Origin: Alphaproteobacteria bacterium
Lineage (GTDB): Bacteria; Pseudomonadota; Alphaproteobacteria; JAXMDU01
DNA length: 64,000 nucleotides
NCBI GenBank assembly: GCA_046348645.1
Contig: JAXMDU010000004.1
Coordinates: forward strand, 32,645-96,644
Reading direction: 5' to 3'
A program made the position numbers and the translations under genes. This document shows positions 6,485-54,756 of the stretch, one piece after another; within the stretch, counting starts at the first letter, position 1, and every line of letters begins with the position of its first letter. The notes under the pieces were generated by a model. It was given only the letters and a program-made list of their open reading frames with translations, was not told the origin of the DNA and made no database searches.

Positions 6485-6609
6485 ATCCGGCTGCGGTCGA
6501 ACGACATTCGCCGCCGACCCAGCCTGCCCATGCCATCTTTGGCACCGCCGTCCGGGCCGGCGGCACCGCCGTCCGAGCCGGCGAATGAGCCTTGCACAAG
6601 GGGGATTGC

Positions 6610-11645: not shown

Positions 11646-11709
11646 AGGCCATCTTATAGACAGGCCTATCACAAGATTGGCCCATCACAAGATCGGCCCG
11701 CCATCAGTA
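11646..11709. repeat. 4 tandem 16-bp units (GGCCYATCACAAGATY-like); last unit contains the stop codon of ACAD 11704-12870
   Basis: ggccatcttatagaca / ggcctatcacaagatt / ggcccatcacaagatc / ggcccgccatcagtac read directly. Confidence 0.7.
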
Positions 11710-12870
11710 CGACTTCGGCAGCCCCAGGATCCGCTCGGCGATATAGGACAGCAGAAGCGGCGGCGTCACCGGGCCAATGCGCTGGATCCAGATCTCGCGA
11801 TAATAACGCTCGACGTGGAACTCCTTGGCATAGCCCATACCCCCATAGGCAAAGATCGCCCGCTTGCAGGCCCTGAGACCCGCCTCGGCGCCCAGGAACT
11901 TGGCGGCATTGGCTTCGGCGCCGCAGGGCTTGCCCTGGTCGAACAGGCTGGCGGCCTTGAAGGTCATCAGGTTGGCGGCTTCAAGCTCGCACCAGCTTTC
12001 CGCCAATGGATGCTGGACCGCCTGATTCTTGCCGATCGGCCGGCCGAACACGATCCGCTCGTTCGCATAGGCCGAGATCTTGCGCAGCGCCGCACGGCCG
12101 ATGCCAATCGTCTCGGCCCCGACAATGATGCGTTCCGGGTTGATGCTGTCGAAGATGTAGCGGAGGCCCTTGCCTTCCTCGCCGATCAGGTCCTCTTTCG
12201 GAACCGGCATGCCATCGAAGAAGACCTGATTCGTGTCGACGGCTTCGCGGCCCATTTTCGGGATCACGCGGGCCTCGGCGTAGCGGCGATCGAAGTCCGT
12301 ATAGAACAGGCTGAGACCGTCAGCCGGCCGTTTGCACTTGTCAATTGGCGTGGTGCGGGCCAGCAGAACGATCTTGTTCGCTTCCTGGGCAGTGGTGGTC
12401 CAGATCTTCTGGCCGCTTACCACATAGTTCTTCCCGTTCCATTCCGCCCGGCACTGGGCCCGGGTGGTATCGACGCCGGCATTGGGTTCCGTCACCCCGA
12501 AACAGGCCCGATCCTTGAGGGTAATGAGCCGATTGACCCAGCGTTCGCGCTGGTCTTCGCTGCCATGCAGGATGACGGCCTGCGGGCCGAAAATGTTGAT
12601 GTGAACGGCCGAGCAGCCCGAAAGGCAGGCGCCGGTCTCGGCGATCGTCTGCATCATCAAGGCACCCTCGACGAAGCCAAGGCCCGAGCCGCCGTATCTT
12701 TCCGGCACCACGATGCCAAGCCAGCCCGCATCGGCCAGGGCCTGGCAGAAATCCACCGGAAAACGGGCATCGCGATCGACGGCCAGCCAATAGGCATCGT
12801 CGAAACGCTCGATGGTCTTCAAGACACCGTCGCGGATCGCCAATTGCTCGTCTGTAAACTCGAAATCCAT
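11704..12870 (-). CDS. acyl-CoA dehydrogenase (paralog group ending LGLPKSY)
   Basis: MDFEFTDEQLAIRD start; typical ACAD blocks (GVTEPNAGVDTT, FGRPIGKNQAVQHPLAE, YGGMGYAKEFHVERYYRE). Confidence 0.85.
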   Translation of the reverse strand: MDFEFTDEQLAIRDGVLKTIERFDDAYWLAVDRDARFPVDFCQALADAGWLGIVVPERYGGSGLGFVEGALMMQTIAETGACLSGCSAVHINIFGPQAVILHGSEDQRERWVNRLITLKDRACFGVTEPNAGVDTTRAQCRAEWNGKNYVVSGQKIWTTTAQEANKIVLLARTTPIDKCKRPADGLSLFYTDFDRRYAEARVIPKMGREAVDTNQVFFDGMPVPKEDLIGEEGKGLRYIFDSINPERIIVGAETIGIGRAALRKISAYANERIVFGRPIGKNQAVQHPLAESWCELEAANLMTFKAASLFDQGKPCGAEANAAKFLGAEAGLRACKRAIFAYGGMGYAKEFHVERYYREIWIQRIGPVTPPLLLSYIAERILGLPKSY

Positions 12871-24650: not shown

Positions 24651-24714
24651 CCTAATCCGATTCTGGCCTAATCCGATTTCGGCCCAACCCGATTCTGGCC
24701 TAATACGATTTCGG
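24651..24714. repeat. 4 tandem 16-bp units (CCTAATCCGATTYYGG-like); last unit contains stop and final codons of ACAD 24700-25872
   Basis: cctaatccgattctgg / cctaatccgatttcgg / cccaacccgattctgg / cctaatacgatttcgg. Confidence 0.75.
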
Positions 24715-25872
24715 CAGCCCGAGAACCCGCTCGGCAATGTAGGAGAGGACCATCGGCCCCGTGATCGGCGCGATGCGATAGATCTGCATCTCGCGAAAAT
24801 AGCGCTCGACGTGGAATTCCTTGGCATAGCCCATGCCACCCATCGAGAAGATCGCGCGTTTGCAGGCCTCGAACCCGGCTTCGGCCGCGTAGAACCGGGC
24901 CGCATTGGCCTCTGGCCCGCATTCCTTGCCCTTGTCGTAGTACGAACAGGCCCGATAGGTCAGCAGATCGGCCGCCTCAAGCTTGCACCAGCTTTCCGCC
25001 AGCGGATGCTGAATCGCCTGGTTCTTGCCGATCGGGCGGTCGAAGACGATCCGCTCCTTGGCGTATTCCGTGGCCCGCTTAAGCGCCATGCGGCCCATCG
25101 AGACGCTCTCGGCCGCCACCAGCAGGCGATCGGGGATGAGGCCGTCGAGCAGGTACTTGAAGCCCTTGCCTTCCTCACCAATCCGGTCTTCCTCGGGAAT
25201 GGGCAGGCCATCGTAGAAGACCTGGTTCGAATCGAGCGCGTGACGGCCCATCTTCTCGATTTCGCGCACCTCGACATAGCGGCGATCGAAATCGGTGAAG
25301 AACAAGGTCAGACCGTCGATCGGACGCTTGGTCTTTTCGATCGGCGTGGTCCGGGTCAGCAGCAGGACCTTGGTCGCGACCTGGGCGGTCGATGTCCAGA
25401 TCTTCTGGCCATGGACGATGTAGGCCTTTCTTTTCGGATCGTATTCGGCCCGGGTCTGGATGCGGGTCGTGTCGAGGCCGGCATTGGGTTCGGTGATGCC
25501 GAAGCACGGCTTCACATCGCCCTTGATGATGGGGGTCAGCATCCGCTGCCGCTGTTCCGGCGTGCCATGCTTGACCACCGGATGCGGCCCGAAGACATTG
25601 ATGTGGATTGCCGTGCACGCCGAAAGGCCGCCACCCGATTCGGCAATCGCCTGCATCATCAGGCAGCCTTCGGTGATGCCAAGCCCCGCGCCGCCCAGGT
25701 CGGGCGGCATCATGATCCCGATCCAGCCCGCATCGGCAATGGCACGATGAAAATCGTGCGGGAAGCCGCCTTCCTGATCCTTTTTCAGCCAATAGGCGTC
25801 GTCGTATGGCGCGCAGACCTTGGCCACGGCCTCGCGGATGGCAAGCTGATCCTCGGTAAATGAATGATCCAT
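24700..25872 (-). CDS. acyl-CoA dehydrogenase (LGLPKSY paralog group)
   Basis: MDHSFTEDQLAIRE...FGITEPNAGLDTT...YAKEFHVERYFRE...LGLPKSY. Confidence 0.85.
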   Translation of the reverse strand: MDHSFTEDQLAIREAVAKVCAPYDDAYWLKKDQEGGFPHDFHRAIADAGWIGIMMPPDLGGAGLGITEGCLMMQAIAESGGGLSACTAIHINVFGPHPVVKHGTPEQRQRMLTPIIKGDVKPCFGITEPNAGLDTTRIQTRAEYDPKRKAYIVHGQKIWTSTAQVATKVLLLTRTTPIEKTKRPIDGLTLFFTDFDRRYVEVREIEKMGRHALDSNQVFYDGLPIPEEDRIGEEGKGFKYLLDGLIPDRLLVAAESVSMGRMALKRATEYAKERIVFDRPIGKNQAIQHPLAESWCKLEAADLLTYRACSYYDKGKECGPEANAARFYAAEAGFEACKRAIFSMGGMGYAKEFHVERYFREMQIYRIAPITGPMVLSYIAERVLGLPKSY

Positions 25873-25899: not shown

Positions 25900-25925
25900 T
25901 TAGTATGACTTTCTTAGTATGACTT
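25900..25925. repeat. 2 tandem copies of TTAGTATGACTT (14-bp period) plus a degenerate third; second copy starts at the stop codon of ACAD 25914-27086
   Basis: gtgactgac ttagtatgactt tc ttagtatgactt gggcagg. Confidence 0.65.
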
Positions 25926-27086
25926 GGGCAGGCCAAGCGCACGTTCGGCGATGTAGGACAGCACCAGCGGCGGCGGGATCGGCCCGATGCGCAGGACCTG
26001 CACCTCGCGGAAATAGCGCTCGACGTGGAATTCCTTGGCATAGCCCATGCCGCCCATCGAGAAGATCGCCTTTTGGCAGGCATCGAAGCCCGCTTCGGCG
26101 CCCAGCCACTTGGCAGCGTTCGATTCCGGCCCGCAGGGCTTGCCCTGGTCGTAAAGGGTGGCGGCCTTGTAGACCATCAATTCCGCCGCTTCGAGCTTGC
26201 ACCACGCCTCGGCCAGGGGATGCTGCACCGCCTGGTTCTTGCCGATCGGGCGGTCGAACACGATCCGCTCCTTGGCATACTGGGCGGCGCGTTTCAGGGC
26301 GGCGCGCCCCATGCCCACCGATTCGGCCCCCACCATGAACCGTTCCGGATTCATGCTGTCCAGGATGTAATAGAAGCCCCGGCCTTCTTCGCCGATCAGG
26401 TCGTCCTTCGAAACCGGCATCCCGTCATAGAAGACCTGATTGGAATCGACCGCGTGGCGGCCCATTTTCGGGATTTCCCGCACCTCGGCGTAGTCCCGGT
26501 TCAGATCCGTGTAGAACAGGCTGATGCCGTCCTGGGGACGCTTGGTCTTGTCGACCGGCGTGGTGCGGGCCAGCAGCATGACCTTGTTTGCCTGCTGGCC
26601 GGTCGAGGTCCAGATCTTCTGGCCCGAGACGATGTATTTCTGGCGGGCCGGGTCCCATTCCGCCTTGCAGGTCAGCCGGGTGGTATCGATCCCGGCGCCG
26701 GGCTCGGTCACCCCGAAACAGGCCCGGTCCTTGAGGGTAATAAGCCGGTTCACCCACCGCTCGCGCTGCTCTTCCGAGCCGTGCTTCACCATCGCCATCG
26801 GCCCGAACATGTTCATGTGGATGGCTGAACAGGCGGCCAGGCAACCGCCCGACTGGGCGATGGTCTGCATCACCAGGGTGCCCTCGACCCAGCCCAGGCC
26901 GGCGCCGCCGTATTTCTCGGGCATGACCACCCCAAGCCAGCCGGCATCCGCCATGGCGCGCGCGAAATCGTGGGGGAATTCGTGCTTGTTGTCCTTGTCC
27001 AACCAGTAGGCGTCGTCAAACTTCTCGCAGACCTTGTTGATCGCATCCCGGATCGCAAGCTGTTCGTCGCTGAACTCGAAATCCAT
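25914..27086 (-). CDS. acyl-CoA dehydrogenase (LGLPKSY paralog group)
   Basis: Start MDFEFSDEQLAIRD (internal ATG of ORF 25914-27140, RBS GGAGCAGG). Confidence 0.85.
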   Translation of the reverse strand: MDFEFSDEQLAIRDAINKVCEKFDDAYWLDKDNKHEFPHDFARAMADAGWLGVVMPEKYGGAGLGWVEGTLVMQTIAQSGGCLAACSAIHMNMFGPMAMVKHGSEEQRERWVNRLITLKDRACFGVTEPGAGIDTTRLTCKAEWDPARQKYIVSGQKIWTSTGQQANKVMLLARTTPVDKTKRPQDGISLFYTDLNRDYAEVREIPKMGRHAVDSNQVFYDGMPVSKDDLIGEEGRGFYYILDSMNPERFMVGAESVGMGRAALKRAAQYAKERIVFDRPIGKNQAVQHPLAEAWCKLEAAELMVYKAATLYDQGKPCGPESNAAKWLGAEAGFDACQKAIFSMGGMGYAKEFHVERYFREVQVLRIGPIPPPLVLSYIAERALGLPKSY

Positions 27087-40073: not shown

Positions 40074-40320
40074 CAGGCTGGCCCGTTGGCAGGCGACCTG
40101 AGCGCAAGCATCGCTGTCGGCGGATTTTGCATCGGCCGGGATCGCCGCCCGGCCTCGCTCGCCCCGACAAATATCATTTTATTTCAACAGCTTGATTGAC
40201 AACCGGCGGGTGGCACGACGGGCCGGCAAGGTTCGGTGCGGCATTTTTCCCTGTCGAGAATCTTTACACTTGCCGGCGCCGGACCTCGCCCTATCCCAGC
40301 AAGCCGCTGGAAAACAACAA

Positions 40321-40354
40321 TTAACCATGTTTGGCACGGCTCTTGCATGGTTAA
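40321..40354 (+). promoter_or_regulatory. sigma-54 (-24/-12) promoter TGGCACG-N4-TTGCA embedded in a perfect 9-bp inverted repeat
   Basis: ttaaccatg TT TGGCACG gctc TTGCA tggttaa; consensus spacing exact; about 85 bp upstream of the PEP-CTERM gene start. Confidence 0.6.
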
Positions 40355-40431
40355 CGGCAGGTCGTGAACCGCGCCGGGTGCCAGACCGGCGCATGGGGCC
40401 GAAAACCAGAGCCACTATCCAGGAGGACACA

Positions 40432-41106
40432 ATGAAGAACCTAGCGATCGGACTGAGCGCTGCGCTCGCCCTTGCCATCGGCGGCACATGGCTTGGCGAC
40501 GCAAAGGCTGCGACCATTTCGGTTGAGAGCGGTGGCATCACCCTCAACTCGTTCGACACCACGAAAGCGGGCACCCTGGCAGATCCCTGGCTGATCGACG
40601 AGACGATGACCGCGCATGGCCATCTCAAGTTCTCGGGCGATGACGAACCGGGCGGCTCGAGCCCCCTTGGCGGTGCCAATCCGACGGGTAGCGGTCACGA
40701 CGAGGGTCGCTGGATCTCGAAGACGGTGCTGAACGATACCGGCATCACCTGGACGTCGTTCGAGCTTGAACTGCAGGTCCTTCTTGGCACGCCATCGGGT
40801 CAAGGCGACGGTCTCAGCTTCGCGGATGGCAGCAGCCTGACGACGCTCTTCACGTCGGACAAGTTCTCGTCCTACACGCGGTTCGACGTCGATCGCGACT
40901 ACCTGAACTTCAGCGGCGGCGAGGTCCTGGATGGCCAGTCGGTCACCTTCCTGTTCGTGATCACCGACAACCTGGCGAACGACCCGTTCTTCCTGCTGCA
41001 GACGCCGAACATCCGTGACGTGCCAGTGCCGGAACCGGCGACGCTGGGGCTGGTGGGCCTGGGCCTGGCCGGACTTGCGGCTTTGCGCCGGCGCAAGGCA
41101 TCCTGA
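40432..41106 (+). CDS. PEP-CTERM sorting-domain protein (exosortase substrate)
   Basis: Signal peptide MKNLAIGLSAALALAIGGTWLGDAKA; C-terminal VPVPEPATLGLVGLGLAGLAALRRRKAS (PEP motif, TM helix, basic tail). Confidence 0.85.
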   Translation: MKNLAIGLSAALALAIGGTWLGDAKAATISVESGGITLNSFDTTKAGTLADPWLIDETMTAHGHLKFSGDDEPGGSSPLGGANPTGSGHDEGRWISKTVLNDTGITWTSFELELQVLLGTPSGQGDGLSFADGSSLTTLFTSDKFSSYTRFDVDRDYLNFSGGEVLDGQSVTFLFVITDNLANDPFFLLQTPNIRDVPVPEPATLGLVGLGLAGLAALRRRKAS

Positions 41107-41487: not shown

Positions 41488-42066
41488 ATGGCCGCGATGT
41501 CGAGTTTCGCCCCCGCCCCGGAAGGGGCACCCTGCCTGCCGCCCCTGGCCGGCCGTCTGCTGGCGCCGTTGCCGCTGGGGCCGATCGCCCTGGTTGCCGG
41601 GCGCCTGTTGGGGCGGATCGCGCGCCACCATCCCGAGATGTTCGACCGCCTGGGCGAAAGCGCGACGAAAACCTTTCTGATCGACGCGACCGACCTGCCA
41701 TTCGTTTTTGTGCTGCGGCCCGATCCACTGCGCCCACGGATCGCCGTCACAAGACGGGGCCGTATCCCCGCATTCGATGCGCGAATCGCGGGCCCGCTGG
41801 CGGCTTTGCTGGGCCTTGTCCAGGGAACCTATGACGGCGATGCCCTGTTCTTTTCGCGCGACCTGATGATCGAAGGCGACGTGGAAGCGGTGCTGGCGCT
41901 GCGCAACGCCATCGACGATGCCGAGCTTGACCTGCTGAGCGAAGCCACCGGCCTGTTAGGGCCGCTTCGCCGGCCGGCCGAAGCCCTGTCGCGCGACGTG
42001 TTGCCGGTCATTCATTGGCTGGCGCGGGCATTGCCGCCCCAGCCCCTGGGTCGCCGCGCCCCATGA
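41488..42066 (+). CDS. ubiT: SCP2-domain ubiquinone biosynthesis accessory factor UbiT
   Basis: LFFSRDLMIEGDVEAVLALRNAIDDAEL resembles E. coli UbiT (YhbT); stop overlaps ubiU start (ATGA); start uncertain (41488 or 41497). Confidence 0.65.
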   Translation: MAAMSSFAPAPEGAPCLPPLAGRLLAPLPLGPIALVAGRLLGRIARHHPEMFDRLGESATKTFLIDATDLPFVFVLRPDPLRPRIAVTRRGRIPAFDARIAGPLAALLGLVQGTYDGDALFFSRDLMIEGDVEAVLALRNAIDDAELDLLSEATGLLGPLRRPAEALSRDVLPVIHWLARALPPQPLGRRAP

Positions 42067-43055
42067 CCCCCCGGCACCTGGAACTGGTCTGCCCGGCTGG
42101 AACGCCGGCAGCCCTGCGCACCGCGGTCGATGCCGGGGCGCACGCCATTTATTGCGGCTTCAATGACGAAACCAACGCCCGCAATTTCCCCGGCCTGAAT
42201 TTTTCGCGCCAGGACATGGCCAGGGGCATTGCCTATGCCCACGGCAAGGGTGCCAAGGTGCTGGTCGCCATCAACACCTTTCCACGCGCCGGCGCCGAGA
42301 CGCTTTGGCACCGGGCCGTCGCCGACGCCGATGCAGCGGGGGCAGACGCGATCATCCTGGCCGATATCGGCCTCTTGGCCTTTGCGCGCGACCACCACCC
42401 GCGGCCACGCCGCCATGTGTCGGTGCAGGCGGCGGCCGCCAATCCCCAGGCCATCGCGTTCTACACCGGCGAATTCGGCGTCAAGCGTGTGGTGTTGCCG
42501 CGTGTCCTGTCGGTTGCCGAGATTGCCGCCATCAACCGCCAGATCGACTGCGAGACCGAGGTCTTCGTCTTCGGCGGTCTGTGCGTCATGGCAGAGGGGC
42601 GTTGTTCCCTGTCGTCCTATGTCACGGGAAAGTCGCCCAACATGAATGGCGTCTGCTCGCCCGCCAGCGACGTCAGCTACCAGACGATCGGAACATCGGT
42701 CGTCTCCCGCCTCGGCGGATTCACCATCGACCAGGCCTCGCGCGACGAGCCGACCCCTTATCCGACCCTGTGCAAGGGATGCTTCAAGTCCGGTGCCTAT
42801 ACCGGCCATGTCTTTGCGGAACCGGCAAGCCTTGACGCGGCCGAACTGATCCCCGCCCTGGCCGAGGCCGGCGTTTCGGCGCTCAAGCTTGAAGGCCGGC
42901 AGCGGAGCCGCGCCTATGTCGGCAATGTCGTAAGCACGTTTCGCCGCGCGGTCGATGCCTATGCGGCGGGAAAGCCCATTCCAGCCGGGCAGTTGCAGGC
43001 GATGAGCGAAGGGCAAAGCACGACGGCCGGGGCCTATGTCAAGACCTGGCGATAG
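42063..43055 (+). CDS. ubiU: U32-family O2-independent ubiquinone hydroxylase subunit UbiU
   Basis: Peptidase U32 features (LELVCPAGTPAALRTAVDAGAHAIYCG, conserved Cys cluster) plus ubiT-ubiU-ubiV order. Confidence 0.7.
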   Translation: MTPRHLELVCPAGTPAALRTAVDAGAHAIYCGFNDETNARNFPGLNFSRQDMARGIAYAHGKGAKVLVAINTFPRAGAETLWHRAVADADAAGADAIILADIGLLAFARDHHPRPRRHVSVQAAAANPQAIAFYTGEFGVKRVVLPRVLSVAEIAAINRQIDCETEVFVFGGLCVMAEGRCSLSSYVTGKSPNMNGVCSPASDVSYQTIGTSVVSRLGGFTIDQASRDEPTPYPTLCKGCFKSGAYTGHVFAEPASLDAAELIPALAEAGVSALKLEGRQRSRAYVGNVVSTFRRAVDAYAAGKPIPAGQLQAMSEGQSTTAGAYVKTWR

Positions 43056-43064
43056 GACGGCGCC

Positions 43065-43997
43065 ATGACCGCCATGCCACCCGGGCGAATGGGTCTCACG
43101 CTGGGGCCGGTGCTGTTCCATTGGAATGGCACGCAGCTTTCCGATTTCTATGTCCGGATCGCGGACGAAGCGCCGGTCGAGCGGGTCTGCATCGGCGAGG
43201 TAGTCTGTTCGAAGCGCTTGCCAAGCGTCATCGACAGCCTGGCCCGGGCCATCGAACGCCTGGAACGGGGCGGCAAGGAGGTCATTCTTTCGACCCTTTC
43301 CCTCGTCACCCTGGAGAACGAAAGAAACCGGGTCACGGATCTGGTTCGCGACGCCGCCATGCCCGTCGAAGTGAACGATATTTCGTCCGTTCCGGCGGTT
43401 CAGGGACGCGCCTTCACGGTCGGCCCGTTCGTCAACATCTACAATGAAAGCACGCTCGGCTATTTTGCGCGCCATGGCGCGACGCGCATCTGCCTGCCGC
43501 CCGAACTGCCGCTGTCGTCCATCGCGGTCCTGGCCCGGACCGGCGCGCCGCTTGGCGTTGCCTGCGAGGTTTTCGGCTTCGGGCGTGTGCCGCTTGCCAT
43601 GTCAGGCCGCTGCTATCACGCCCGCCTGCACGGGACGCGCAAGGATGCCTGCCAGTTCGTGTGCGAAAAGGACGCCGACGGGCGGCCCGTCGATACGCTG
43701 GACGGGCAGCCGTTCCTGGCGGTGAACGGCGTCATGACCATGTCGCAGAGCTGCGTCAACCTGATCGAGGATGTCCGCGACATCGCGGGCGCCGGGATCG
43801 ATTCGATCCGCCTGTCGCCCCAGACCTGCGACATGGTCCGGGTCGCGAAGATTTTCCGCGCCGCCATCGATGGCGAGCGGGACCCGGCCGCCGCGCGCCA
43901 GGACCTGGCCGCGCTCATTCCCTTCGCGCCCTTTTCGAACGGGTTCCTGCACGGGACGCGCGGCGTCGCCTATGTCGGTCCCGCAGAGGCCGGCTGA
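43065..43997 (+). CDS. ubiV: U32-family O2-independent ubiquinone hydroxylase subunit UbiV
   Basis: U32 family (YhbV-like), cysteines CEVFGFGRVPLAMSGRCYHARLHGTRKDACQFVC; last 20 codons lie in the left direct repeat. Confidence 0.7.
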   Translation: MTAMPPGRMGLTLGPVLFHWNGTQLSDFYVRIADEAPVERVCIGEVVCSKRLPSVIDSLARAIERLERGGKEVILSTLSLVTLENERNRVTDLVRDAAMPVEVNDISSVPAVQGRAFTVGPFVNIYNESTLGYFARHGATRICLPPELPLSSIAVLARTGAPLGVACEVFGFGRVPLAMSGRCYHARLHGTRKDACQFVCEKDADGRPVDTLDGQPFLAVNGVMTMSQSCVNLIEDVRDIAGAGIDSIRLSPQTCDMVRVAKIFRAAIDGERDPAAARQDLAALIPFAPFSNGFLHGTRGVAYVGPAEAG

Positions 43998-44217
43998 AAC
44001 GCCCTATTCCGCCGCCTTCTGGCGGAACTTCGAGAGCGAGCCCGAATGCATGATCTTGCCGTTGAGATTACGGCCGATCATGCCTTCCACCATCTGCGCG
44101 CAACCGATCAGCTTGTCGAGATCGATGCCGGTCTCGATGCCAAGCTCGGCGCACAGGAACACCATGTCCTCGGTGCAGATGTTGCCGGCCGCGCCCTTGT
44201 GGCCGGCGAAGGGACAG
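43937..44217. repeat. left copy of about 281-bp direct repeat (ubiV 3' end, spacer, 3' end of HMG-CoA lyase-like gene)
   Basis: Near-identical to 48104-48386 with a few 1-2 nt indels/substitutions; flanks the low-GC insertion. Confidence 0.85.
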
Positions 44218-47200
44218 CCGCCGAGCTCACCCTCAGCATCCCATCAACCCAGGAGCACAATAACCCCAGACTCTACTTGTGAATACGATCAAAGCCAGGA
44301 GCACTTCAGCGTCACAGAATGAGAATTCTGTGGAAGCACACTTTTTACGCTTCTTCGCTCCGTTTTTTCGTTGTTGCAACCCACCGCCGTGACGCGCCTC
44401 CTGCCTTGCCTCGCTTTTTCTTCCCTCCCAGATTCACAGCCCCCTTACACTTCGGGTAGTCAGCGCATCCATAGAATGGGCCGAAACGTCCGTTGCGAAG
44501 CTTAGTAGGCCCACCGCATTCAGGGCATGGAGGCCCATCCTTCTGCAGTGACGGATCGGACGGGGAGCTTTTTCGTCCAGACGTGCCCCGCGCACTGTCG
44601 TGCCAGCCGCAGCCTTCCTCATCCTCGCATGTAAAGTACGGGCCGTAGCGGCCCTCCGCATAATATGTTCGCGAGTTGCAGTTCGGGCATCGCGGATTTT
44701 CTGCCTCGGCTACCGTCGAAGCTGCCTCCGCTCGCGCGATCCCAATCCTCTTCGAGACGAATGCAGCAACCTGTTCTGCGAACCCTTCGCTTTCGGCCCT
44801 GGTCATGAACTCATCTGTTCGAGACGTATGTGACAAGGGATTGAGAGAGCCCGACCAGATGACGCGATTATCAATCAAGACGATCTTCTCATGAATGTCG
44901 CGCCGGCAATCGACGACCACCCCAATTCCTTCCAAAGCATCCAAGGCTTGTTTCCCAAGCTCCTCGGGAATTGAGCCGTTGAACCGGGGTGGCCTCGTTA
45001 CACACCGAATTGCGACTCCGTCGCCGATTTTTGTTCTGAACAGGTCTCCATAGGACGCTACACGCTCCGGCGTTATGAAGCCGGAATACATGACAATCGA
45101 CCGCTCCGCCCGGTTCATATCCACCAGACAAGCGTCGGCGAATGTTTTGGAGTGAAACAGCCCGAGCTTCTCTGCATCCAGATCAAGCTCAACAATGCCC
45201 ATGAGGTCTTTCAGATCGCGTTCAATCGGACGCAACGCCATCACTTCGGAAGCGTCGATCACACGACCATGTTCCTGCGCAGTGTGCAGGATACCTCTAA
45301 GCAACGCGGTGCTGGGCAGATGCATATCGAGATAGGTCAGATTGGCCAGCACCAAGAGGTGCTCTTGAGCCCGGCTGACGGCGACGTTCATGAGTCGGGC
45401 ACCGACGTGCTTAGGAGGGATACCCTGCACAAACAACCCAATCCTCCGACTTGGCCCAATGCTTTCAGGGATATCGAGGATCATCATGCGCTTTTCGTCG
45501 CCTTGATAACGATGGACTGTACCGGTCGCGGCGAGTTGGGCCACTGGCTCCATATCCCCAATAAGCTTCTGCAACAGTTTGGCTTGTGCTGCATAGGGCG
45601 TGCATACACCGAGCGCGCTTGAGCTATCCAGAAATCCGTTTGATGCTAAATAGCCGACAAGATTTCGGATGAGAAGCGCATTCAGAAGGTTGAATCGGGA
45701 TTTAAAGATGTTTCGGCTTTCGAACGGCCATAGTCTGGACGTATCGATGATGGTAAGCGCCCCGTCATATGGCGCAGGCGGTCGTGGGCCGTTGGGCCGA
45801 TGGCGTTCTTTGGCCGTTGTAAGCCTTCCTTGATACATGTCTGTCGCGATGAGGCCGCATATCTCGTCCGTCATGCGATACTGAGTATCGAGCAGCGCAT
45901 ATCTGGGATCTTCGCTCTTTCCGTCGATGCCCGCCGACTCAAAGACATCCTGCCCAATGAGATCGTGGATTGCCTGTTGGCGGCTCGGCAAGATCGGCGG
46001 GAGCTGTCGGAAATCACCAGAAACGATCACCCGTTCCGTTGACAGGCCCGCAGCGAAATAAAGCGCGGGCAGAAGCACCATCGACGCTTCGTCAATCACG
46101 ACAACATCAAACCGGCCTATGTCACGTGCCTGGAGGTACGACTTTGCAACAGTTGTCCCGATCACGCGCGCCTCACGCATGATCGACGCTTCCATTTCCG
46201 CTAACCGCCGCGCAATTTCCTGAAGTTCGGCCACAAGCGGCTGACGTTCACCATCAATCGCCTGTCTGTCCCTTTCAAGCTGTTGCCGGTCTTGTACAGA
46301 GAGCTGGGATGCCAAGGATTCAGCCGAAGATCGCACTTCGTTACGTTTGTTCTCTAATGTCTTGGCTTCGGCCGTCCCGTTTCGAACAATTGCTTCCTGA
46401 CGCGCTATTTCCGATTCGGCACGTCGATAGTCGCTTATGATTATCTCATCGGAACGAAGAAAAACGCGACGCAACACGCCTGCGCTTTTCCGCTGTTGCA
46501 GCTCAGCTTTGCAGTCCTGAATTTGTTGCTGCGCCTTTTCATAGGATGCGGCAGCAGTCTTTATGGCGTTAAGGCATGTGTTCAGTTGCTGATTGAGGGA
46601 TGTCAGCTTGCTTTCGGTCCTATCAAGCCGCGCAAAGAGCTGAAGCTTTTCGTTTATAGATGTCGCTTTGGCGTCGAACAGCGCCACTTGTTCTTCCAGC
46701 TCGTGTTGTCGCTCCCTGAGTCCCTTCGACAACCGTTCGATAATACCGTCTGTCGTCACATAGGATGCGTACTCGTTCTTAAGCTCCGGAAGGACAATGT
46801 TGCCGATGCGAACAACTTTGCCTTCTTCAAACGCGGCATGTTTGAGATGCTCCAGATGACGGCAAAGCTTATAGATAAGCTGATCAACAGCCTGGTTCGT
46901 GTTGGAGCAGACGAGGATACGCTTTCCAGCGTCAAATGCGGCTTGAATGCCGACGGACAGTGTTTGCGTTTTTCCCGTCCCCGGAGGTCCCCACAGGTAT
47001 GAAATGCTGTGCTCCAGCATCAAGTGCAGTGCAGCGTTCTGGCTATCATTCAGATCGTGAGGCGGCACGCCGATTGGCGACACTTCGGAGTTGTGGATTT
47101 CCTTGGATACGACGCTATCCGCCACTGATGCAGATAGATTCAGTTCGCCCTTGCCCACCTGATCAAGGCGGTCTTTCAGTGCTTCGATCAGAGCCGTGTT

Positions 47201-48103
47201 GTCGATGAGAAGTATGCAACGTCGGATTGATGGTCCCAGGTTGCCATCCAGCGAAATAAGTATGGTCCCTTCCGATATTGATACGATTTGCCCTCTGCTA
47301 CGTCGGCCATCGACTTCAATTTCTATTCGCGCTTCCTCGAAAATCTCCGCTTCTTCAGAGAACGGGAATACATAGATAGGTTGGCCCGCCTGCGTGTCTA
47401 CGACTTTGCCGCGCTCCAGTTCATAACGGCGACTGCCGCTACCTTCTCTTCGCATTTCGCTTATCAGGGCGTCGAGCGCGAGAACATAGCGCTGTATGTT
47501 TGTGGAATCCTGCGGCAGATCGATAACCAGATCGGTGTCCAGAGCCGGTTGGTAGGCATCAGGCTTTCCCCTAACCCCTGGAGCAGCGATCCCGGTGAAA
47601 TGTTGCGGTATCCTCCTGTCATCAGGTTGCTCGTCCGGGATAGACGGAGTTGATACTTCAGCAGGCCTTTGGCTCGCCGAAGCGAATGATGCCGCTGGGT
47701 CTGAAGATGTACGGGAAGGTACGGGCCGGTTCTCCGGGCGCACGCCAACAGGCTGCCCCTCAAACAAGTGGCCGGTTGGCGCAGGGCCTTCCCTTGATTG
47801 GTTCTCTATTGCTGTGAGGCGTTCTTCAACTCGGCTACGAAGCCTCTTTGCCCGGTCGGTCTTCCGGTGTTCAAGCTCATCGAGAAGGCTCCGCATCGTG
47901 GCCCGCTCTTCGCCTTTTTCGGCGAAAAGCTTCTCAAGCTGGACTATTCCATGCTGGATGAAGGTCCGCTTCATTCTTGGTCGCCTGCCTCAAGCGCCGT
48001 TCCTTTGCTCCCAGGAAAACGTATGCCACTTCGGATGGTAAGAATTTCTCAAGACCATAGTGTTGCCCCCTAGAATAGTGCCGACGGCGAGGTAACGCTT
48101 CTT
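44218..48103. mobile_element. putative horizontally acquired insertion (about 3.9 kb, lower GC), no integrase/transposase, single cargo gene
   Basis: GC about 47-52% in sampled lines versus about 60-75% in flanks; bounded by the 281/283-bp direct repeats; interrupts the 3' region of the HMG-CoA lyase-like gene. Confidence 0.55.
44345..47974 (-). CDS. 1209-aa fusion: Upf1-like SF1 helicase + PLD (HKD) nuclease domain + two topoisomerase-type C4 zinc ribbons
   Basis: Helicase motifs WGPPGTGKTQT, VCSNTNQAVDQL, VVVIDEASM, SGDFRQLPP, QYRM, VHRYQGDEKRMMILD, NVAVSRAQEHL, with about 250-aa coiled-coil insert between Walker A and B; HKD motif HEKIVLIDNRVIWSGSLN; ribbons CPNC...C..C and CPEC...C..C; K/R-rich tail. 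Confidence 0.75.
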   Translation of the reverse strand: MKRTFIQHGIVQLEKLFAEKGEERATMRSLLDELEHRKTDRAKRLRSRVEERLTAIENQSREGPAPTGHLFEGQPVGVRPENRPVPSRTSSDPAASFASASQRPAEVSTPSIPDEQPDDRRIPQHFTGIAAPGVRGKPDAYQPALDTDLVIDLPQDSTNIQRYVLALDALISEMRREGSGSRRYELERGKVVDTQAGQPIYVFPFSEEAEIFEEARIEIEVDGRRSRGQIVSISEGTILISLDGNLGPSIRRCILLIDNTALIEALKDRLDQVGKGELNLSASVADSVVSKEIHNSEVSPIGVPPHDLNDSQNAALHLMLEHSISYLWGPPGTGKTQTLSVGIQAAFDAGKRILVCSNTNQAVDQLIYKLCRHLEHLKHAAFEEGKVVRIGNIVLPELKNEYASYVTTDGIIERLSKGLRERQHELEEQVALFDAKATSINEKLQLFARLDRTESKLTSLNQQLNTCLNAIKTAAASYEKAQQQIQDCKAELQQRKSAGVLRRVFLRSDEIIISDYRRAESEIARQEAIVRNGTAEAKTLENKRNEVRSSAESLASQLSVQDRQQLERDRQAIDGERQPLVAELQEIARRLAEMEASIMREARVIGTTVAKSYLQARDIGRFDVVVIDEASMVLLPALYFAAGLSTERVIVSGDFRQLPPILPSRQQAIHDLIGQDVFESAGIDGKSEDPRYALLDTQYRMTDEICGLIATDMYQGRLTTAKERHRPNGPRPPAPYDGALTIIDTSRLWPFESRNIFKSRFNLLNALLIRNLVGYLASNGFLDSSSALGVCTPYAAQAKLLQKLIGDMEPVAQLAATGTVHRYQGDEKRMMILDIPESIGPSRRIGLFVQGIPPKHVGARLMNVAVSRAQEHLLVLANLTYLDMHLPSTALLRGILHTAQEHGRVIDASEVMALRPIERDLKDLMGIVELDLDAEKLGLFHSKTFADACLVDMNRAERSIVMYSGFITPERVASYGDLFRTKIGDGVAIRCVTRPPRFNGSIPEELGKQALDALEGIGVVVDCRRDIHEKIVLIDNRVIWSGSLNPLSHTSRTDEFMTRAESEGFAEQVAAFVSKRIGIARAEAASTVAEAENPRCPNCNSRTYYAEGRYGPYFTCEDEEGCGWHDSARGTSGRKSSPSDPSLQKDGPPCPECGGPTKLRNGRFGPFYGCADYPKCKGAVNLGGKKKRGKAGGASRRWVATTKKRSEEA

Positions 48104-48386
48104 GAACGGGTTCCTGCACGGACGCATGGCGTCGCCTATGTCGGTCCCGCAGAGGCCGGCTGAAATCGCCCTATTCCGCCGCCTTCTGGCGGAACTTCGA
48201 GAGCGAGCTCCGAATGCATGATCTTGCCGTTGAGATTACGGCCGATCATGCCTTCCACCATCTGCGCGCAACCGATCAGCTTGTCGAGATCGATGCCGGT
48301 CTCGATGCCAAGCTCGGCGCACAGGAACACCATGTCCTCGGTGCAGATGTTGCCGGCCGCGCCCTTGTGGCCGGCGAAGGGACAGC
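48104..48386. repeat. right copy of about 283-bp direct repeat
   Basis: Duplicate of 43937-44217; contains a degenerate copy of the ubiV 3' end and the 3' end of the HMG-CoA lyase-like gene. Confidence 0.85.
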
Positions 48387-49129
48387 GCGAGCGCGGCGAG
48401 CGAACTGTCGAACAGATCGACGCCCATTTCGAGCGCCGCGTAGAAATTCGCCGGGCCAAGGCCGCGAGTATCGTGCAGATGGAGGCCGATCCGCACCTCG
48501 GGCCAGATCTCGCGCACGATGCCGATGCGGCGCTTGATCGCTTCCGGATTGGCCCAGCCGACCGTGTCGGCAAGATAGAGGGCCGGGATCTTGTAATCAT
48601 GCTCGGCGGTCACCGCTTTGATCAGCCGCACGTTTGTGGCGATCTGGGTCTCGGGGATCTCGCCTTCCATGTTGCAGCCGAAGGCGGTCGCGATATAGGC
48701 GGCCGAGGGCGCGACACGATGCTGCTTGTAGAGCTCGATCCATTCGTGCTGATCCTTGCGGTACTGCTCGATGCTGCGGTTGTTGTTCTGGGTGCAGAAG
48801 GCCTCGCTGGTGGAATAATAGATGACGCCTTCAAGGGTTACGTTCCTGAGATCGAGGGCCCGCAGGAAGCCCTGCTTGTTGAGCCAGGTCGCCGTATATT
48901 TCACGCCCGGCCGCGGATGGATGGCGGCGAAGAATTCGGGCGTGTCGGCCATCGGCGGCACCCGTTTCGGGTTGACGAGCGAGGCGACGTTGATGTGCTT
49001 CAGACCGGTATCGCTCAGGGCATCGATCAGGGCCACCCGCTGTTCCAAGGGATAGATGGTTTTTTCGATCTGGAAGCCCTCGCGCGGGCCTTCCTCGCGG
49101 AATTCGACGAAACGGGGCAGCGTCGCCAT
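48136..49129 (-). pseudogene. HMG-CoA lyase-like (DRE-TIM metallolyase) gene, frameshifted at the repeat/insertion junction
   Basis: N-terminal body (FREEGPREGFQIEKTIYP...RIGLHLHDTRGLGPANFYAALEMGVDLFDSS) in ORF 48236-50107; C-terminus (CPFAGHKGAAGNICTEDMVFL...) in ORF 48136-48600; frame changes at about 48387-48395. Confidence 0.6.
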
Positions 49130-49327
49130 GGCCGATTCTCCTGTTGCCGGTCGCTCCTGGTGCGGAAATGCGAAGGCCTGAAAAAGTAAGGACTTCGTCT
49201 GAGGATCGATGTTAGCGCAATCGGCGGGGCGCGCAATCATGACCGCCGGCCTTGCCGGCCAGCCGGTTTCAGCCCAAGATCGTGCCCCGTTCGTACCAGA
49301 CAGCAACAGTGACAGTCGGAGGAGCAT

Positions 49328-52021: not shown

Positions 52022-52208
52022 GGCAGATTTTCCTCCGTGCGCCTTTGATCTGATTGTTGTGATTTGCAGAGCACGTTGCCGGTTGTCCGGCAGAGCCGAT
52101 CCCGACATTGCATCCATGATTGCCCAAATGCTGGAAAAGTCGAGGGGAAATGCGCGGCCCTCAATTCATGCAATTCGGTCGCACATGCAAGATGGCGACT
52201 GGAAATGG

Positions 52209-52237
52209 AAAAAGCCCGCCACGGGTCAGCGCGGCGG
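52209..52237. repeat. 29-bp direct repeat copy 1 (AAAAAGCCCGCCACGGGTCAGCGCGGCGG), degenerate terminator
   Basis: Identical 29-mer recurs at 52989-53017; together they bracket a roughly 750-bp lower-GC segment. Confidence 0.8.
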
Positions 52238-52401
52238 CATGAACGGCCGAACATTCGCCGTCGCCTTCATCGAAGGACTGCCAAAACCGCAACCAGAAAA
52301 GGAGGAGAAGCAATCCGAAATACGAGACACCAACAAAGTCGCCTGACGCCCCCGCTCACCGCGGCACTGTCAGCCGATTACCCTCTCCGTACATGTTTTG
52401 C

Positions 52402-52869
52402 CTACCGCGCCCCTGAAAGCTGCAAGAGTCCGGACCAAGCGTTCACGATAACGACAAACATTCCGCAAAGTATGACAATAAACAAACCGGTCGTTACGGG
52501 CCAATCATACCAAAAACTGACGCGATCACGGTTTACTTCGCCGTAGACCTCTCGCGCATCTTTCTCAAATCTACCGTATAGGCGATTCAACCTCTCTCTT
52601 TTCTCTTTCATTGAATCCGTCGCGTAGACGATCACCATCAACCACATCTCCGCCACACCGATAGCGGCAATCGTAAGAATGGTCTTCCCCCAGCACGTCA
52701 GAGCGAACGGTGTCCGTGTCAAAAAGTACAGAGCGGCAAAGAGCAGCAGGGCATAATTCGTGATCTTCCAAGTCCTATCCTTCATGGCCGCGATATGTGC
52801 GATGGCGTCGCGGTGAATCATGTCGTACGCCCGCTGCGTTTCGACCTGTTCGGGTTGCTTTTCCTCCAT
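52402..52869 (-). CDS. small membrane protein of unknown function, 155 aa, three predicted TM helices, low GC
   Basis: Start MEEKQPEQ after AAGGAG; hydrophobic stretches ITNYALLLFAALYFL, ILTIAAIGVAEMWLMVIVYA, TTGLFIVILCGMFVVIVNAW; GC about 48%. Confidence 0.55.
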   Translation of the reverse strand: MEEKQPEQVETQRAYDMIHRDAIAHIAAMKDRTWKITNYALLLFAALYFLTRTPFALTCWGKTILTIAAIGVAEMWLMVIVYATDSMKEKRERLNRLYGRFEKDAREVYGEVNRDRVSFWYDWPVTTGLFIVILCGMFVVIVNAWSGLLQLSGAR

Positions 52870-52985
52870 GGCCGACTCCTTCAAATGTATCACCTTGAAT
52901 AGGCTACCGAGGATTAAGCCGTGTTTGGAAAAATTCCAGCGCGCCAATGTTGCAAAGGCGAGAGGCCCACATGCCCGAGAGCGCC

Positions 52986-53030
52986 AATAAAAAAGCCCGC
53001 CACGGGTCAGCGCGGCGGGCTTTTGTCTTT
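52986..53030 (-). terminator. rho-independent terminator for the MaoC-like gene; includes 29-bp repeat copy 2
   Basis: GCCCGCC...GGCGGGC stem; minus-strand RNA ends in UUUUUUAUU, plus strand has TTTTGTCTTTC. Confidence 0.75.
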
Positions 53031-53583: not shown

Positions 53584-54756
53584 TCAATATGATTTTGGCA
53601 GCCCGAGCACCCGTTCGGCAATATACGACAGAATGAGCGGCGGTGGAATTGGTCCGATGCGGAGCACCTGGACCTCGCGCAGATAGCGCTCGACATGGAA
53701 CTCCTTGGCATAGCCCATGCCGCCATGGGTCATGATCGCCTGCTCGCAGGCCTCGAACCCGGCCTCGGCCGCCAACCACTTGGCGGCATTGGATTCAGGG
53801 CCGCAGGGCTCGCCCTGGTCGTAGAGCGTGGCGGCCTTGAAGGCCATCAGGTTGGCGGCCTCGAGCTTGCACCAGGCCTCGGCCAGCGGGTGCTGGATGG
53901 CCTGGTTCTGGCCGATGGGGCGGCCAAAGACGACGCGATCACGCGCATACTGGGTGGCCCGCCGCAGGCCGGCCCGGCCCATGCCCACACATTCCACCGC
54001 CACCAGGATGCGTTCCGGGTTCAGGCTGTCCAGGAGGTAGTAAAAGCCTTTGCCCTCCTCGCCGATCAGGTCTTCCTTGGGGACCGGCATGCCGTCATAG
54101 AACACCTGGTTCGAATCGACCGCGTGGCGGCCCATCTTCTGGATTTCCCGCACCTCGGCGTATTTCTTGTTGAGGTCGGTATAGAAAAGGCTCAGGCCAT
54201 CGATCGGGCGCTTGGTCTTCTCGATCGGCGTGGTGCGCGCGATCAGCATCACCTTGTTGGCAACCTGGGCGGTCGAGGTCCAGATCTTCTGGCCCGAGAT
54301 GATGTAGCGCTGGCTCTTGGCATCCCACTCGGCCTTGGTGGTGAGATGGGTGGTGTCGATGCCGGCCCCGGGCTCGGTAACGCCGAAGGCCGAGCGGTCC
54401 TTCAGGGTGATGAGCCGATTGACCCAGCGGCGCTTCTGTTCGTCGGTGCCGTATTTCACGATGGCACCGGGCCCGAAGATGTTGACGTGCACCGCCGAAC
54501 AGGCGGCAAGACAGCCGCCTGATTCGGCGATCGTCTGCATCATCAGCGCCGCTTCGGTATAGCCCAGGCCCGAGCCGCCGTATTCCTCGGGCATGATGAT
54601 GCCAAGATAGCCGGCCTCCGCCATGGCCTTGGCAAAATCGTGCGGGAATTCGTGCTTGGTGTCGCGCTCGAGCCAGTAGGAATCGCTGAAGCCTTCGCAA
54701 ATCTTGGCAACGCCGTCCCGGATTGACAGTTGTTCCGGGGTAAACTTGAAATCCAT
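53584..54756 (-). CDS. acyl-CoA dehydrogenase (LGLPKSY paralog group)
   Basis: MDFKFTPEQLSIRD...FGVTEPGAGIDTT...GGMGYAKEFHVERYLRE...LGLPKSY. Confidence 0.85.
   Translation of the reverse strand: MDFKFTPEQLSIRDGVAKICEGFSDSYWLERDTKHEFPHDFAKAMAEAGYLGIIMPEEYGGSGLGYTEAALMMQTIAESGGCLAACSAVHVNIFGPGAIVKYGTDEQKRRWVNRLITLKDRSAFGVTEPGAGIDTTHLTTKAEWDAKSQRYIISGQKIWTSTAQVANKVMLIARTTPIEKTKRPIDGLSLFYTDLNKKYAEVREIQKMGRHAVDSNQVFYDGMPVPKEDLIGEEGKGFYYLLDSLNPERILVAVECVGMGRAGLRRATQYARDRVVFGRPIGQNQAIQHPLAEAWCKLEAANLMAFKAATLYDQGEPCGPESNAAKWLAAEAGFEACEQAIMTHGGMGYAKEFHVERYLREVQVLRIGPIPPPLILSYIAERVLGLPKSY

Follow-up and report, generated by a model that had tools for sequence, protein, structure and literature searches.

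Organization of the locus

The window, a stretch of 64,000 nucleotides from an environmental alphaproteobacterial MAG, contains the genes ubiU and ubiV and, converging on ubiV, a gene for an HMG-CoA-lyase-like protein. Between ubiV and the body of the lyase gene lies a segment of foreign DNA, bracketed by two direct repeats (DR-L and DR-R), each of which holds the 3' ends of both host genes. The features of the locus are as follows.

42015-43055, plus strand: ubiU, upstream of ubiV; NCBIfam equivalog quinone_UbiU 489.8 bits (cutoff 440), Pfam Peptidase_U32
43065-43997, plus strand: ubiV, intact, with its true 3' end within DR-L; NCBIfam equivalog quinone_UbiV 360.2 bits (cutoff 275)
43931-44226: DR-L, 296 nt; defined by repeat search, MAFFT, global alignment and the outgroup L001
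44004-44226, minus strand: lyase 3' end, orphan copy of 73 codons plus stop; in frame, undamaged, separated from the gene body
44227-48097: inserted foreign DNA, 3,871 bp; GC about 0.52-0.58 versus 0.62-0.69 in the flanks; absent from L001
44345-47974, minus strand: sole gene of the insert, 1,209 amino acids; Upf1-like SF1 helicase, PLD nuclease and topoisomerase-type zinc ribbons (Mokosh type II-like)
48098-48392: DR-R, 295 nt; carries the derived changes according to outgroup comparison and global alignment
48098-48164, plus strand: ubiV 3' end, orphan decayed copy; 4 substitutions and a 1-nt deletion relative to 43931-43997
48171-49129, minus strand: HMG-CoA-lyase-like gene, a pseudogene in this assembly, with frameshifts at about 48387 and 48209; Pfam HMGL-like

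The lyase-like gene starts with MATLPRF at 49129 and encodes FDSSLAAL at 48389-48412. Its repaired protein is 91% identical to P0121 over the full length and scores 243.6 bits against NCBIfam PRK05692, just below the cutoff of 246.

In a relative (L001, 75% identical), ubiV is followed by the convergent lyase gene and the repeated segment is single-copy, representing the empty site. This empty site aligns once to both repeats, which is the topology of a Campbell product. On the evidence of this comparison and of base composition, the intervening segment is a real insertion relative to L001, horizontally acquired and compositionally foreign, and the insertion proposed in the preliminary description is thereby borne out. 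No relative closer than 75% at the amino acid level was present in the scan of species-representative genomes. Neither a same-species empty site nor an intact lyase allele was found: the exact ubiV product is without a record, the best lyase match is the 91% one, and a metagenome scan with the repeat-core pattern returned distant lyases only.

The locus is also represented in an independent assembly. A Logan unitig contig (L088) corresponds to positions 44197-48096 of the window at 100% identity, reproducing the left junction and the whole insert. It ends at 48096, just short of DR-R, so that the right junction (48096/48097) is provided by the present assembly only. Compared with independent contigs, unique regions of the MAG contain no indels over 7.7 kb.

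The direct repeats

DR-L and DR-R are directly oriented and identical at 288 of 298 columns of a global alignment; the two copies were also recovered by repeat search and MAFFT. Near-identical direct repeats around an insertion had been reported in the preliminary description, and pairwise alignment confirms them while refining their limits to those listed above. Each copy comprises the last 67 nt of ubiV including its stop (43931-43997 in the left copy), a spacer, and the last 223 nt of the lyase-like gene, with its stop at 44004-44006 on the left and at 48171-48173 on the right. The spacer is 6 nt and not the 45 bp given before. A core of 177 nt (44042-44218, equal to 48210-48386) is 100% identical.

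The 64-kb window holds no other near-identical repeats besides this pair, and direct repeats of at least 60 nt and at least 90% identity, spaced 0.3-12 kb apart, occurred once in 1.2 Mb of related alphaproteobacterial loci. Chance is therefore excluded as an explanation for the pair. We detected no homology past the repeat edges of the kind left by an older, decayed and longer duplication reaching into the insert flanks; the boundaries are sharp, and in the left copy identity to the native sequence stops at 44226.

Wherever the copies differ by an indel, DR-L has the state of the outgroup L001, and it looks native throughout. DR-R carries several changes on its ubiV side, namely substitutions at 48101 and 48103, loss of a G at 48120, and GC to AT at 48126-7. 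Its remaining changes are an additional T at 48166, another at 48209, and a loss of 2 nt plus one substitution at 48387. The derived changes all lie in DR-R and none in the copy contiguous with ubiV. The triplet TTC at 48099-48101 of DR-R corresponds to the outgroup state, and the left copy differs there. The differences are clustered and leave the 177-nt core untouched (P about 1e-4 for a uniform distribution), a pattern that uniform decay explains less well than a mosaic or recombinant history. Within the lyase part of 223 nt, the first 214 nt are free of substitutions and contain one added T at 48209, the sole substitution being that of the junction lesion; the 67-nt ubiV part has 4 substitutions and one indel.

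At the junction with the lyase body, the sequence is GGGACAG-CGCGAGC in DR-R but GGGACAGCCGCCGAGC in DR-L and in the outgroup. The earlier observation that this junction is 2 bp short and shifts the lyase frame holds in alignment with both, and the additional T at 48209, which had been missed, introduces a second frameshift. The orphan lyase end on the left contains an open reading frame at 44004-44165, whose translation (...GGCPFAGHK...HSGSLSKFRQKAAE, followed by the stop) matches the C-terminus of the L001 lyase. Of the codons ELGGCPFAG that had been attributed to the left copy up to about 44229, the E belongs to the insert sequence, the native residue at this position being A. The left end of L088 implies reads with an undeleted lyase in a sister population, so that integration may not have produced the 2-bp lesion, which could instead be strain-specific or erroneous. 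This independent assembly hints that the lesion may be polymorphic.

The inserted gene

The insert carries a single intact gene; its other open reading frames overlap the helicase gene on the opposite strand or in other frames. The gene has the same orientation as the lyase gene and lies downstream of it. A scan of the region yielded no sigma-70-like promoter, a scan that is uninformative for an alphaproteobacterium. The Pfam domains are AAA_11 (2.4e-36), AAA_12 (3.1e-23) and Zn_ribbon_Top1, and PLDc_2 matches residues 953-1071 at 25.4 bits, slightly below the Pfam cutoff of 27. Across 14 homologues there is no variation in the Walker A motif GPPGTGKT, in the DEAS motif or in the residues H1028, K1030 and D1035 of the HxK(x)4D motif. 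Homologues of the protein with E <= 1e-10 number 307. PDB matches of the helicase are IGHMBP2, Nam7 and Upf1.

Mokosh type II (MkoC) is a single-protein system in which a PLD nuclease follows a Upf1-like COG1112 helicase (bioRxiv 10.1101/2022.05.11.491447). Both elements are found here: a Upf1-like (COG1112, SF1B) helicase with its ATP-binding motifs, and a PLD nuclease C-terminal to it in the same polypeptide. In PADLOC, MkoA matches the helicase region at 6e-54, above MkoC at 3.1e-41, and both MkoB and MkoC match the PLD region; the MkoC match is partial, covering profile positions 777-1105 of 1136, that is, its C-terminal third. The protein thus shares the helicase-then-PLD order and the matches to MkoA and MkoC models, but adds an unassigned N-terminal region of about 300 amino acids and C-terminal topoisomerase-type zinc ribbons that lie outside the published definition. 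Homologues are located in a type I R-M/Mrr island, next to AbiEii, and in toxin-antitoxin and relaxase elements, some of them inside mobile elements with relaxase or serine recombinase genes. The cargo is probably a single-gene phage-defence system.

Mobility features of the insert

No recombinase or transposase domain was detected by Pfam in the one gene of the insert, nor any recombinase domain in ubiT, ubiU, ubiV, the lyase gene and the thiolase-like and OB-fold genes. By inspection alone, no recombinase was noticed among the remaining open reading frames at 41-51.5 and 52-53.6 kb. The insert ends carry no terminal inverted or direct repeats above shuffled controls, the inverted-repeat score being equal to the shuffled mean. 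The Pfam scan and the shuffled controls agree with the preliminary description, which had seen no integrase, transposase or short terminal repeats. Nucleotide homology to the closest homologues (79-86% nucleotide identity) stops at the boundaries of the open reading frame, so that no conserved element ends can be recognized. Compared with site-specific integrative elements, the insert has flanking repeats that contain the target 3' end; it has neither an integrase of its own nor conserved ends. Neither the DNA nor the protein of the insert resembles plasmids or phages, and IMG/VR viral contigs gave spurious short matches only.

A second insertion of the same architecture

A homologue with 53% identity (L093, also L094) likewise stands as a single gene with a GC content below that of its flanks. 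It lies between repeats of 97 nt and 97% identity, in which the end of a NUDIX gene (3') is duplicated, with the same gene order and orientation as in the window. These repeats differ by 3 substitutions only. The structure is present in three assemblies with both junctions included, and one Logan unitig contig spans both. The inserts are of nearly equal size, 3,871 bp in the window and 3,901 bp in L093, each amounting to the gene plus 241 nt, and they share no end motifs. Flanking repeats were absent at the other homologues (L081, L082-84, L085-87, L096, L100-107, L108/109 and L110); among about 10 contexts seen for the gene family, only 2 have the repeat structure. Identical homologues from different samples all shared one context. 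The L093 locus and the window together point to a recurrent, host-mediated and duplicative mode of integration.

Origin of the insertion

The preliminary description had considered the duplication far too long for a target-site duplication and had proposed an att-like or recombination-mediated event. We agree with this classification, since a duplication of 296 bp is not of the transposase type. Because the insert lacks both a recombinase and recognizable ends, it was presumably integrated by host functions.

Our best guess, to which we would assign a probability of roughly 40%, is a Campbell-type integration through a homology arm. Campbell-type integration, as in the single crossover of suicide plasmids and in lambda-dgal heterogenotes, is the textbook route to a repeat-insert-repeat structure whose repeats can have any length, the repeat being as long as the arm. 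The arrangement is also akin to prophage e14 in icd, except that no integrase is resident. The topology is the same as here, with the homology segment duplicated directly on both sides of the incoming DNA. We postulate that a copy of the ubiV/lyase 3' region was present on the incoming DNA and took part in a single-crossover ("ends-in") exchange with the chromosomal site, carried out by RecA or by a recombinase supplied in trans. In DR-R, the divergent 112 nt nearest the insert would then represent the old, never-selected end of the arm. With a 296-bp host segment on each side, each host gene has, or once had, a full end, and the displaced duplicates are orphans.

Several observations weigh against this Campbell-type integration. 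In this assembly the lyase is not preserved, given its two frameshifts, and it is odd that an arm diverged in another lineage should have a near-flawless lyase part next to a changed ubiV part. A RecA crossover in the identical core would leave the 2-bp lesion in the "host" part, where it would have to be put down to polymorphism, to error or to a host mutation arising by coincidence. The model also requires a circular or ends-in molecule that already bears host DNA, and hence presupposes an earlier event joining the insert to the host segment; no such molecule is observed here, and the cargo is without a replicon or marker that would speak for a plasmid or for engineering. Searches of genomes, protein records and metagenomes yielded neither a donor circle nor an arm-bearing relative.

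The main rival to Campbell-type integration is capture during break repair, which we consider unlikely. A linear foreign fragment would have been end-joined, by Ku/LigD-type or microhomology-mediated repair, at a staggered or resected break between 43931 and 44226. Fill-in or synthesis-dependent repair would have reproduced the overlap of about 296 nt on either side, so that after one replication one copy would be parental and free of errors, the other a product of error-prone synthesis. The clustered, indel-rich defects confined to one copy (five indel columns, a tandem double substitution and two substitutions 2 nt apart) would agree with this, as would a lesion exactly at the presumed start of synthesis, the lyase-side boundary. 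However, a flawless core of 177 nt between the error clusters calls for an ad hoc polymerase switch, one of the "errors" restores the outgroup codon, and the L093 repeats show substitutions and nothing else. Since L088 suggests that the boundary lesion is absent from a sister population, the strongest argument for break repair would be removed. The missing recombinase, the unconserved ends and the variable repeat length (296 versus 97 nt) speak for break repair, and the near-equal insert sizes would fit the capture of size-limited fragments. Nevertheless, we know of no bacterial case in which end joining has duplicated hundreds of bases of its target. For Sinorhizobium meliloti, an alphaproteobacterium, the available part of one report describes NHEJ capture of foreign DNA that is likewise free of recombinase and homology and accompanied by end fill-in and small indels (PMC6379672). 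Those events took place at defined I-SceI breaks, and long target duplications are not among the ones described in that part (PMC6379672); the 296-nt duplication found here would need a long stagger or templated synthesis.

Less probable still is a remnant or satellite of a site-specific element, in which a tyrosine recombinase targeted the lyase 3' end. The element would have carried a replacement 3' end, with DR-R element-borne and the crossover at the lyase-side boundary, and its integrase would have been deleted later or supplied in trans. Precedents exist in e14 and in CIMEs. In E. coli icd, e14 is flanked by 163-bp direct repeats that duplicate the target 3' end and leave an orphan pseudo-end (PMC6379469). 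As with e14 and phage 21 in icd, the repeats in the window are long, begin within the target gene and contain its 3' end, and one copy stays on the gene while the other is orphaned. Furthermore, the divergent copy lies on the presumed element side, the decayed part is a ubiV fragment never needed for function, the lesion falls at the presumed crossover, the architecture is repeated at the NUDIX 3' end in L093, and cargo homologues occur in mobile elements with a relaxase or serine recombinase. Unlike this insert of one gene and no recombinase, the e14 prophage encodes an integrase and has a defined att core. The present repeat of 296 bp spans two convergent gene ends, and the reconstituted gene is frameshifted in this assembly, so the "replacement" end fails to restore the lyase. 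CIMEs are decayed ICE/IME that have kept attL and attR and lost the genes for integration and transfer. They are defined, however, through a related ICE/IME that supplies an integrase for their att sites; neither such an element nor an integrase was found at this locus, where the insert ends are unconserved and the repeats far longer than typical att cores. A site-specific remnant is further disfavored by the lack of an integrase in the insert and in the scanned adjacent genes, by ends that are conserved neither between the two cases nor with the closer homologues, and by zero synonymous differences in the lyase part of the repeat. In addition, decay to exactly one open reading frame plus 241 nt would need to have happened twice, in independent elements.

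An assembly artefact, raised in the preliminary description, we regard as very unlikely. The contig would have threaded the de Bruijn or overlap graph twice through one shared segment, drawn for example from an empty-site chromosome and a separate molecule bearing the insert with a diverged copy of that segment, or from a strain mixture. The integrated repeat-insert-repeat would then not be real as such, and the indels would be consensus errors. The source is a MAG, the exact 177-nt core exceeds usual k-mers, the differences are rich in indels, and the right junction comes from one assembly, L088 stopping before it; the left end of L088 also implies a sequence in the sample that shares 44196-44226 and then diverges. 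Against this, the two copies differ at 10 columns and DR-R has its own unique sequence, which is not something that assemblers invent. The left junction is reproduced exactly, the unique MAG sequence is free of indels, and the analogous L093 structure is complete in three assemblies. The version with a separate molecule still needs a real molecule that joins the insert to a copy of the host segment.

A transposon or IS was rejected, there being no transposase, no inverted repeats and no fixed duplication length (296 nt here, 97 nt in L093), and an engineered origin, also suggested earlier, is not supported, as nothing in the insert resembles a vector, plasmid or phage and the DNA comes from an environmental MAG. 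A SacI site (GAGCTC) is present at the left junction and an EcoRI site at 44325-44330. Given the lack of vector sequence and the environmental source, we regard both as chance.

Relevance for the spread of defence genes

The locus bears on the open question of how defence genes move outside recognizable mobile elements. One putative defence gene alone has been placed between tightly packed convergent genes, both of whose ends are duplicated, and a distant homologue is found in a like arrangement at another site in another organism. This hints that defence genes can be acquired by host recombination or repair only. If such a host-mediated route, whether integration by a homology arm or capture in break repair, is general, it would explain "orphan" defence genes at non-hotspot sites and would provide a searchable signature, namely long direct repeats duplicating gene 3' ends around single low-GC genes. 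If the two cases are accidents, the window would offer a clean natural example of a Campbell-like duplication at a defence gene, with collateral loss of the lyase.

A broader proposal, which we consider a long shot, is that single defence genes in Alphaproteobacteria are repeatedly acquired without a recombinase, as size-limited fragments of about 3.9 kb, the gene ends on either side being preserved by target duplications of 100-300 nt, or that the helicase/PLD/zinc-ribbon protein promotes its own duplicative insertion. A length of about 3.9 kb is roughly a headful of RcGTA-type gene transfer agents.

Insertion of a single foreign gene between ubiV and a lyase-like gene

The insertion site lies between ubiV and the convergent HMG-CoA lyase-like gene. 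It consists of a one-gene insert bounded by two direct repeats, whose extents were set by global alignment.

Features of the insertion

43931-44226, left direct repeat (DR-L), 296 nt
44227-48097, insert, 3,871 bp
44345-47974, minus strand, sole gene of the insert (cargo), 1,209 aa
48098-48392, right direct repeat (DR-R), 295 nt

The preliminary description had proposed comparison with related genomes lacking the insert, and the closest relative found (L001; ubiV 75% identical at the protein level, lyase 91% identical) has such an empty site, in which ubiV is immediately followed by the convergent lyase. Window positions 43003-44226 and 48099-49143 both align to this locus and overlap at its positions 1145-1449; hence the empty site has one copy of the segment and the window two. 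The GC content of the insert is 0.52-0.58, compared to 0.62-0.69 in the flanks. We consider it very likely that the feature is real and foreign. A SacI site (GAGCTC, 44225-44230) coincides exactly with the left junction, and 100 nt into the insert there is an EcoRI site (44325-44330); no vector sequence is present, and both sites were judged to be chance occurrences.

The cargo contains AAA_11/AAA_12 domains (SF1B helicase), Zn_ribbon_Top1, and PLDc_2 at 25.4 bits, slightly under the Pfam cutoff. PADLOC matched it to MkoA (6e-54) and MkoC (3e-41), and its closest solved structures are IGHMBP2, Nam7, and Upf1. The Walker A, DEAS box, and PLD H-x-K-x4-D residues are invariant across 14 homologues. 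Mokosh type II is a single protein with a Upf1-like helicase followed by a PLD nuclease (bioRxiv 10.1101/2022.05.11.491447). The cargo shares this order in one polypeptide, but has an extra N-terminal region without an assigned domain and C-terminal zinc ribbons. Judged by family resemblance, it is probably a Mokosh type II-like gene with a putative defence function.

Cargo homologues occur next to a type I R-M/Mrr island and near AbiEii. In loci L100-L107, the helicase homologue is adjacent to a NUDIX gene, on the margin of an element with relaxase and toxin-antitoxin genes, and in two contexts it directly adjoins a small serine recombinase, or resolvase (L108:5131-5688 / L109:5131-5688; L110:5556-6236). 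No cargo homologues were found in plasmid, phage, and viral collections.

The absence of an integrase, transposase, and inverted terminal repeats, noted previously, holds: Pfam searches found no recombinase domain in the insert, and neither inverted nor direct terminal repeats were found at its ends. Nucleotide homology to the closest homologues (L081-L087; 79-86% nucleotide identity) begins about 20 nt before the ATG and runs to the stop codon or, in L081, to a point within the gene about 40 nt from its 3' end. As these limits lie near those of the ORF, what relatives share is the ORF itself and not a bounded element. Integration was quite likely carried out by host functions and not by an enzyme encoded in the insert.

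Structure and divergence of the direct repeats

DR-L and DR-R are in direct orientation and identical at 288 of 298 columns of a global alignment, with an identical core of 177 nt (44042-44218 = 48210-48386). Each copy comprises the final 67 nt of ubiV (stop at 43995-43997 in the left copy), a 6-nt spacer, and the final 223 nt of the lyase-like gene (stops at 44004-44006 in DR-L and 48171-48173 in DR-R). The 45-bp spacer of the preliminary description was an error; its remaining account of direct copies holding both 3' ends was correct. No extension of the duplication into the insert was found. The pair is the sole near-identical repeat within the 64-kb window, where the remaining repeat families are paralogues of 60-80% identity. 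Among 80 alphaproteobacterial loci (1.2 Mb in total), a search for direct repeats of at least 60 nt, at least 90% identity, and 0.3-12 kb spacing returned one, of 67 nt.

Changes in DR-R

48101, substitution
48103, substitution
48120, deletion of G
48126-7, substitution GC>AT
48166, insertion of T
48209, insertion of T
48387, boundary lesion: 2-nt deletion and one substitution

With L001 as outgroup, DR-L is ancestral at all indel positions and both of its reading frames are intact. By outgroup comparison and global alignment, DR-R holds all derived changes; its TTC at 48099-48101 agrees with the outgroup and not with DR-L. All ten differing columns lie outside the 177-nt core (P about 1e-4 under uniform placement). 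Of the two orphan ends, that of ubiV (in DR-R) has decayed and that of the lyase (in DR-L) is undamaged. As assembled here, the lyase gene (start 49129) is truncated and carries two frameshifts: the one from the 2-nt shortfall at the right junction, as already described, and a second from the T inserted at 48209. When repaired with the DR-L sequence, it encodes a full-length protein with 91% identity to its L001 counterpart.

Support from independent assemblies

The window is part of a 253-kb contig in a MAG deposited at NCBI as Alphaproteobacteria bacterium. In run SRR26348421, a Logan contig (L088; 3,900 bp) matches window 44197-48096 at 100% identity, so both the left junction and the insert sequence are confirmed. 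On the left, the contig ends exactly 30 nt (k-1) beyond 44227, as expected of a k=31 unitig when the reads contain a second continuation of the 31-mer 44196-44226. DR-R as assembled lacks this 31-mer owing to the 2-nt deletion. Together, these observations suggest that the sample of SRR26348421 includes the lyase sequence without the deletion (CCGCCGAGC, then a non-T base), which would come either from an undamaged right copy or from an empty site. The 2-nt lesion may accordingly reflect a polymorphism, or an error in the MAG.

The right end of L088 lies at 48096, one or two bases short of DR-R, compared to a MAG-based expectation of ~48157, ~60 nt into DR-R. Because the contig stops before DR-R, independent support covers the left junction and the insert, not the right junction. 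This stop implies a branch or coverage gap at the right junction in SRR26348421, which may be heterogeneous there. The flanking Logan contigs L089 (three substitutions in 2,777 bp, no indel) and L090 (identical across 1,077 bp) indicate that the assembly is not generally indel-prone.

A second insertion with the same architecture

P0017, a cargo homologue with 53% protein identity, is a lone gene on L093 among housekeeping neighbors, with ArgJ and NUDIX on one side and ApbA and phasin on the other.

Features of the L093 insertion

3134-3230, left repeat, 97 nt, true NUDIX 3' end plus 21 nt
3231-7131, insert, 3,901 bp
7132-7228, right repeat, 97 nt, orphan; repeats 97% identical

GC content is ~0.64 in this insert and ~0.72 in its flanks. 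As in the window, the helicase gene lies downstream of the gene with the duplicated end and has the same orientation. Both inserts equal the gene plus 241 nt (207+34 in L093, 123+118 in the window), which may be a coincidence or hint at a size-limited fragment; the reported headful of RcGTA-type gene transfer agents is close to both insert sizes. The L093 structure is also present in an NCBI assembly of essentially identical sequence (L094), and a Logan unitig contig (L095) spans both junctions, including variants specific to the right copy. No flanking repeats were found in eight other contexts of the cargo gene family.

Mechanism of integration

The locus combines a foreign single-gene insert, a 296-bp target duplication, no self-encoded recombinase, and a recurring architecture, and its interest rests mainly on this recurrence in a distant homologue. 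The long duplication of gene ends resembles att-like and Campbell-like insertions, from which this locus differs by the missing integrase and the single putative defence gene.

Campbell-type or ends-in recombination is the standard source of arbitrary-length repeats around an insert. Our tentative reading, at a probability of about 0.4, is integration of this type through a target copy carried by the incoming DNA. A prior event, for example aberrant excision, would have joined the insert to host DNA, and the incoming molecule would then have recombined with the chromosomal site. The divergent insert-proximal end of DR-R would represent the arm portion that crossovers cannot refresh. The boundary lesion would be a coincidental change, a polymorphism, or an error, with L088 lending some support to the latter two.

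Break-repair capture, with long-stagger fill-in or templated synthesis, seems rather unlikely: we know of no precedent for long duplications arising in this way, and the flawless core is awkward for it, although it would account for one clean copy and another with clustered, indel-rich changes from the boundary. Recombinase-free capture has a precedent in NHEJ of S. meliloti (PMC6379672). Less likely still is an e14-like or CIME-like element with an integrase supplied in trans, which matches the use of gene 3' ends and the polarity, as in e14/icd (PMC6379469) and CIMEs, but implies that two elements were independently stripped down to a bare ORF; no integrase was found in the insert or the scanned flanking genes, the ends are not conserved, and the lyase part lacks synonymous divergence. 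An assembly artefact, compatible with the end of L088 before DR-R, is highly improbable, as L088 reproduces the left junction and insert, and L089 and L090 show no indels relative to the MAG.

Other features of the window

A low-GC islet (52100-53000, GC 0.53) between TRAP-type solute-binding and MaoC-like genes encodes a predicted membrane protein of 181 aa (52402-52947, minus strand); no repeats were detected on either side of the islet. Acyl-CoA metabolism genes are abundant in the window. Four paralogous copies (11708-12735, 24704-25737, 25918-26951, and 53588-54621) share 60-81% nucleotide identity, and the one at 53584-54756 resembles an acyl-CoA dehydrogenase by eye. Additional paralogue families occupy 19.4-24.6 kb and 28.8-32.1 kb. 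An ORF located upstream of ubiT-ubiU-ubiV (40192-41106) ends in a PEP-CTERM-like sorting signal (VPEPATLGLVGLGLAGLAALRRRK).
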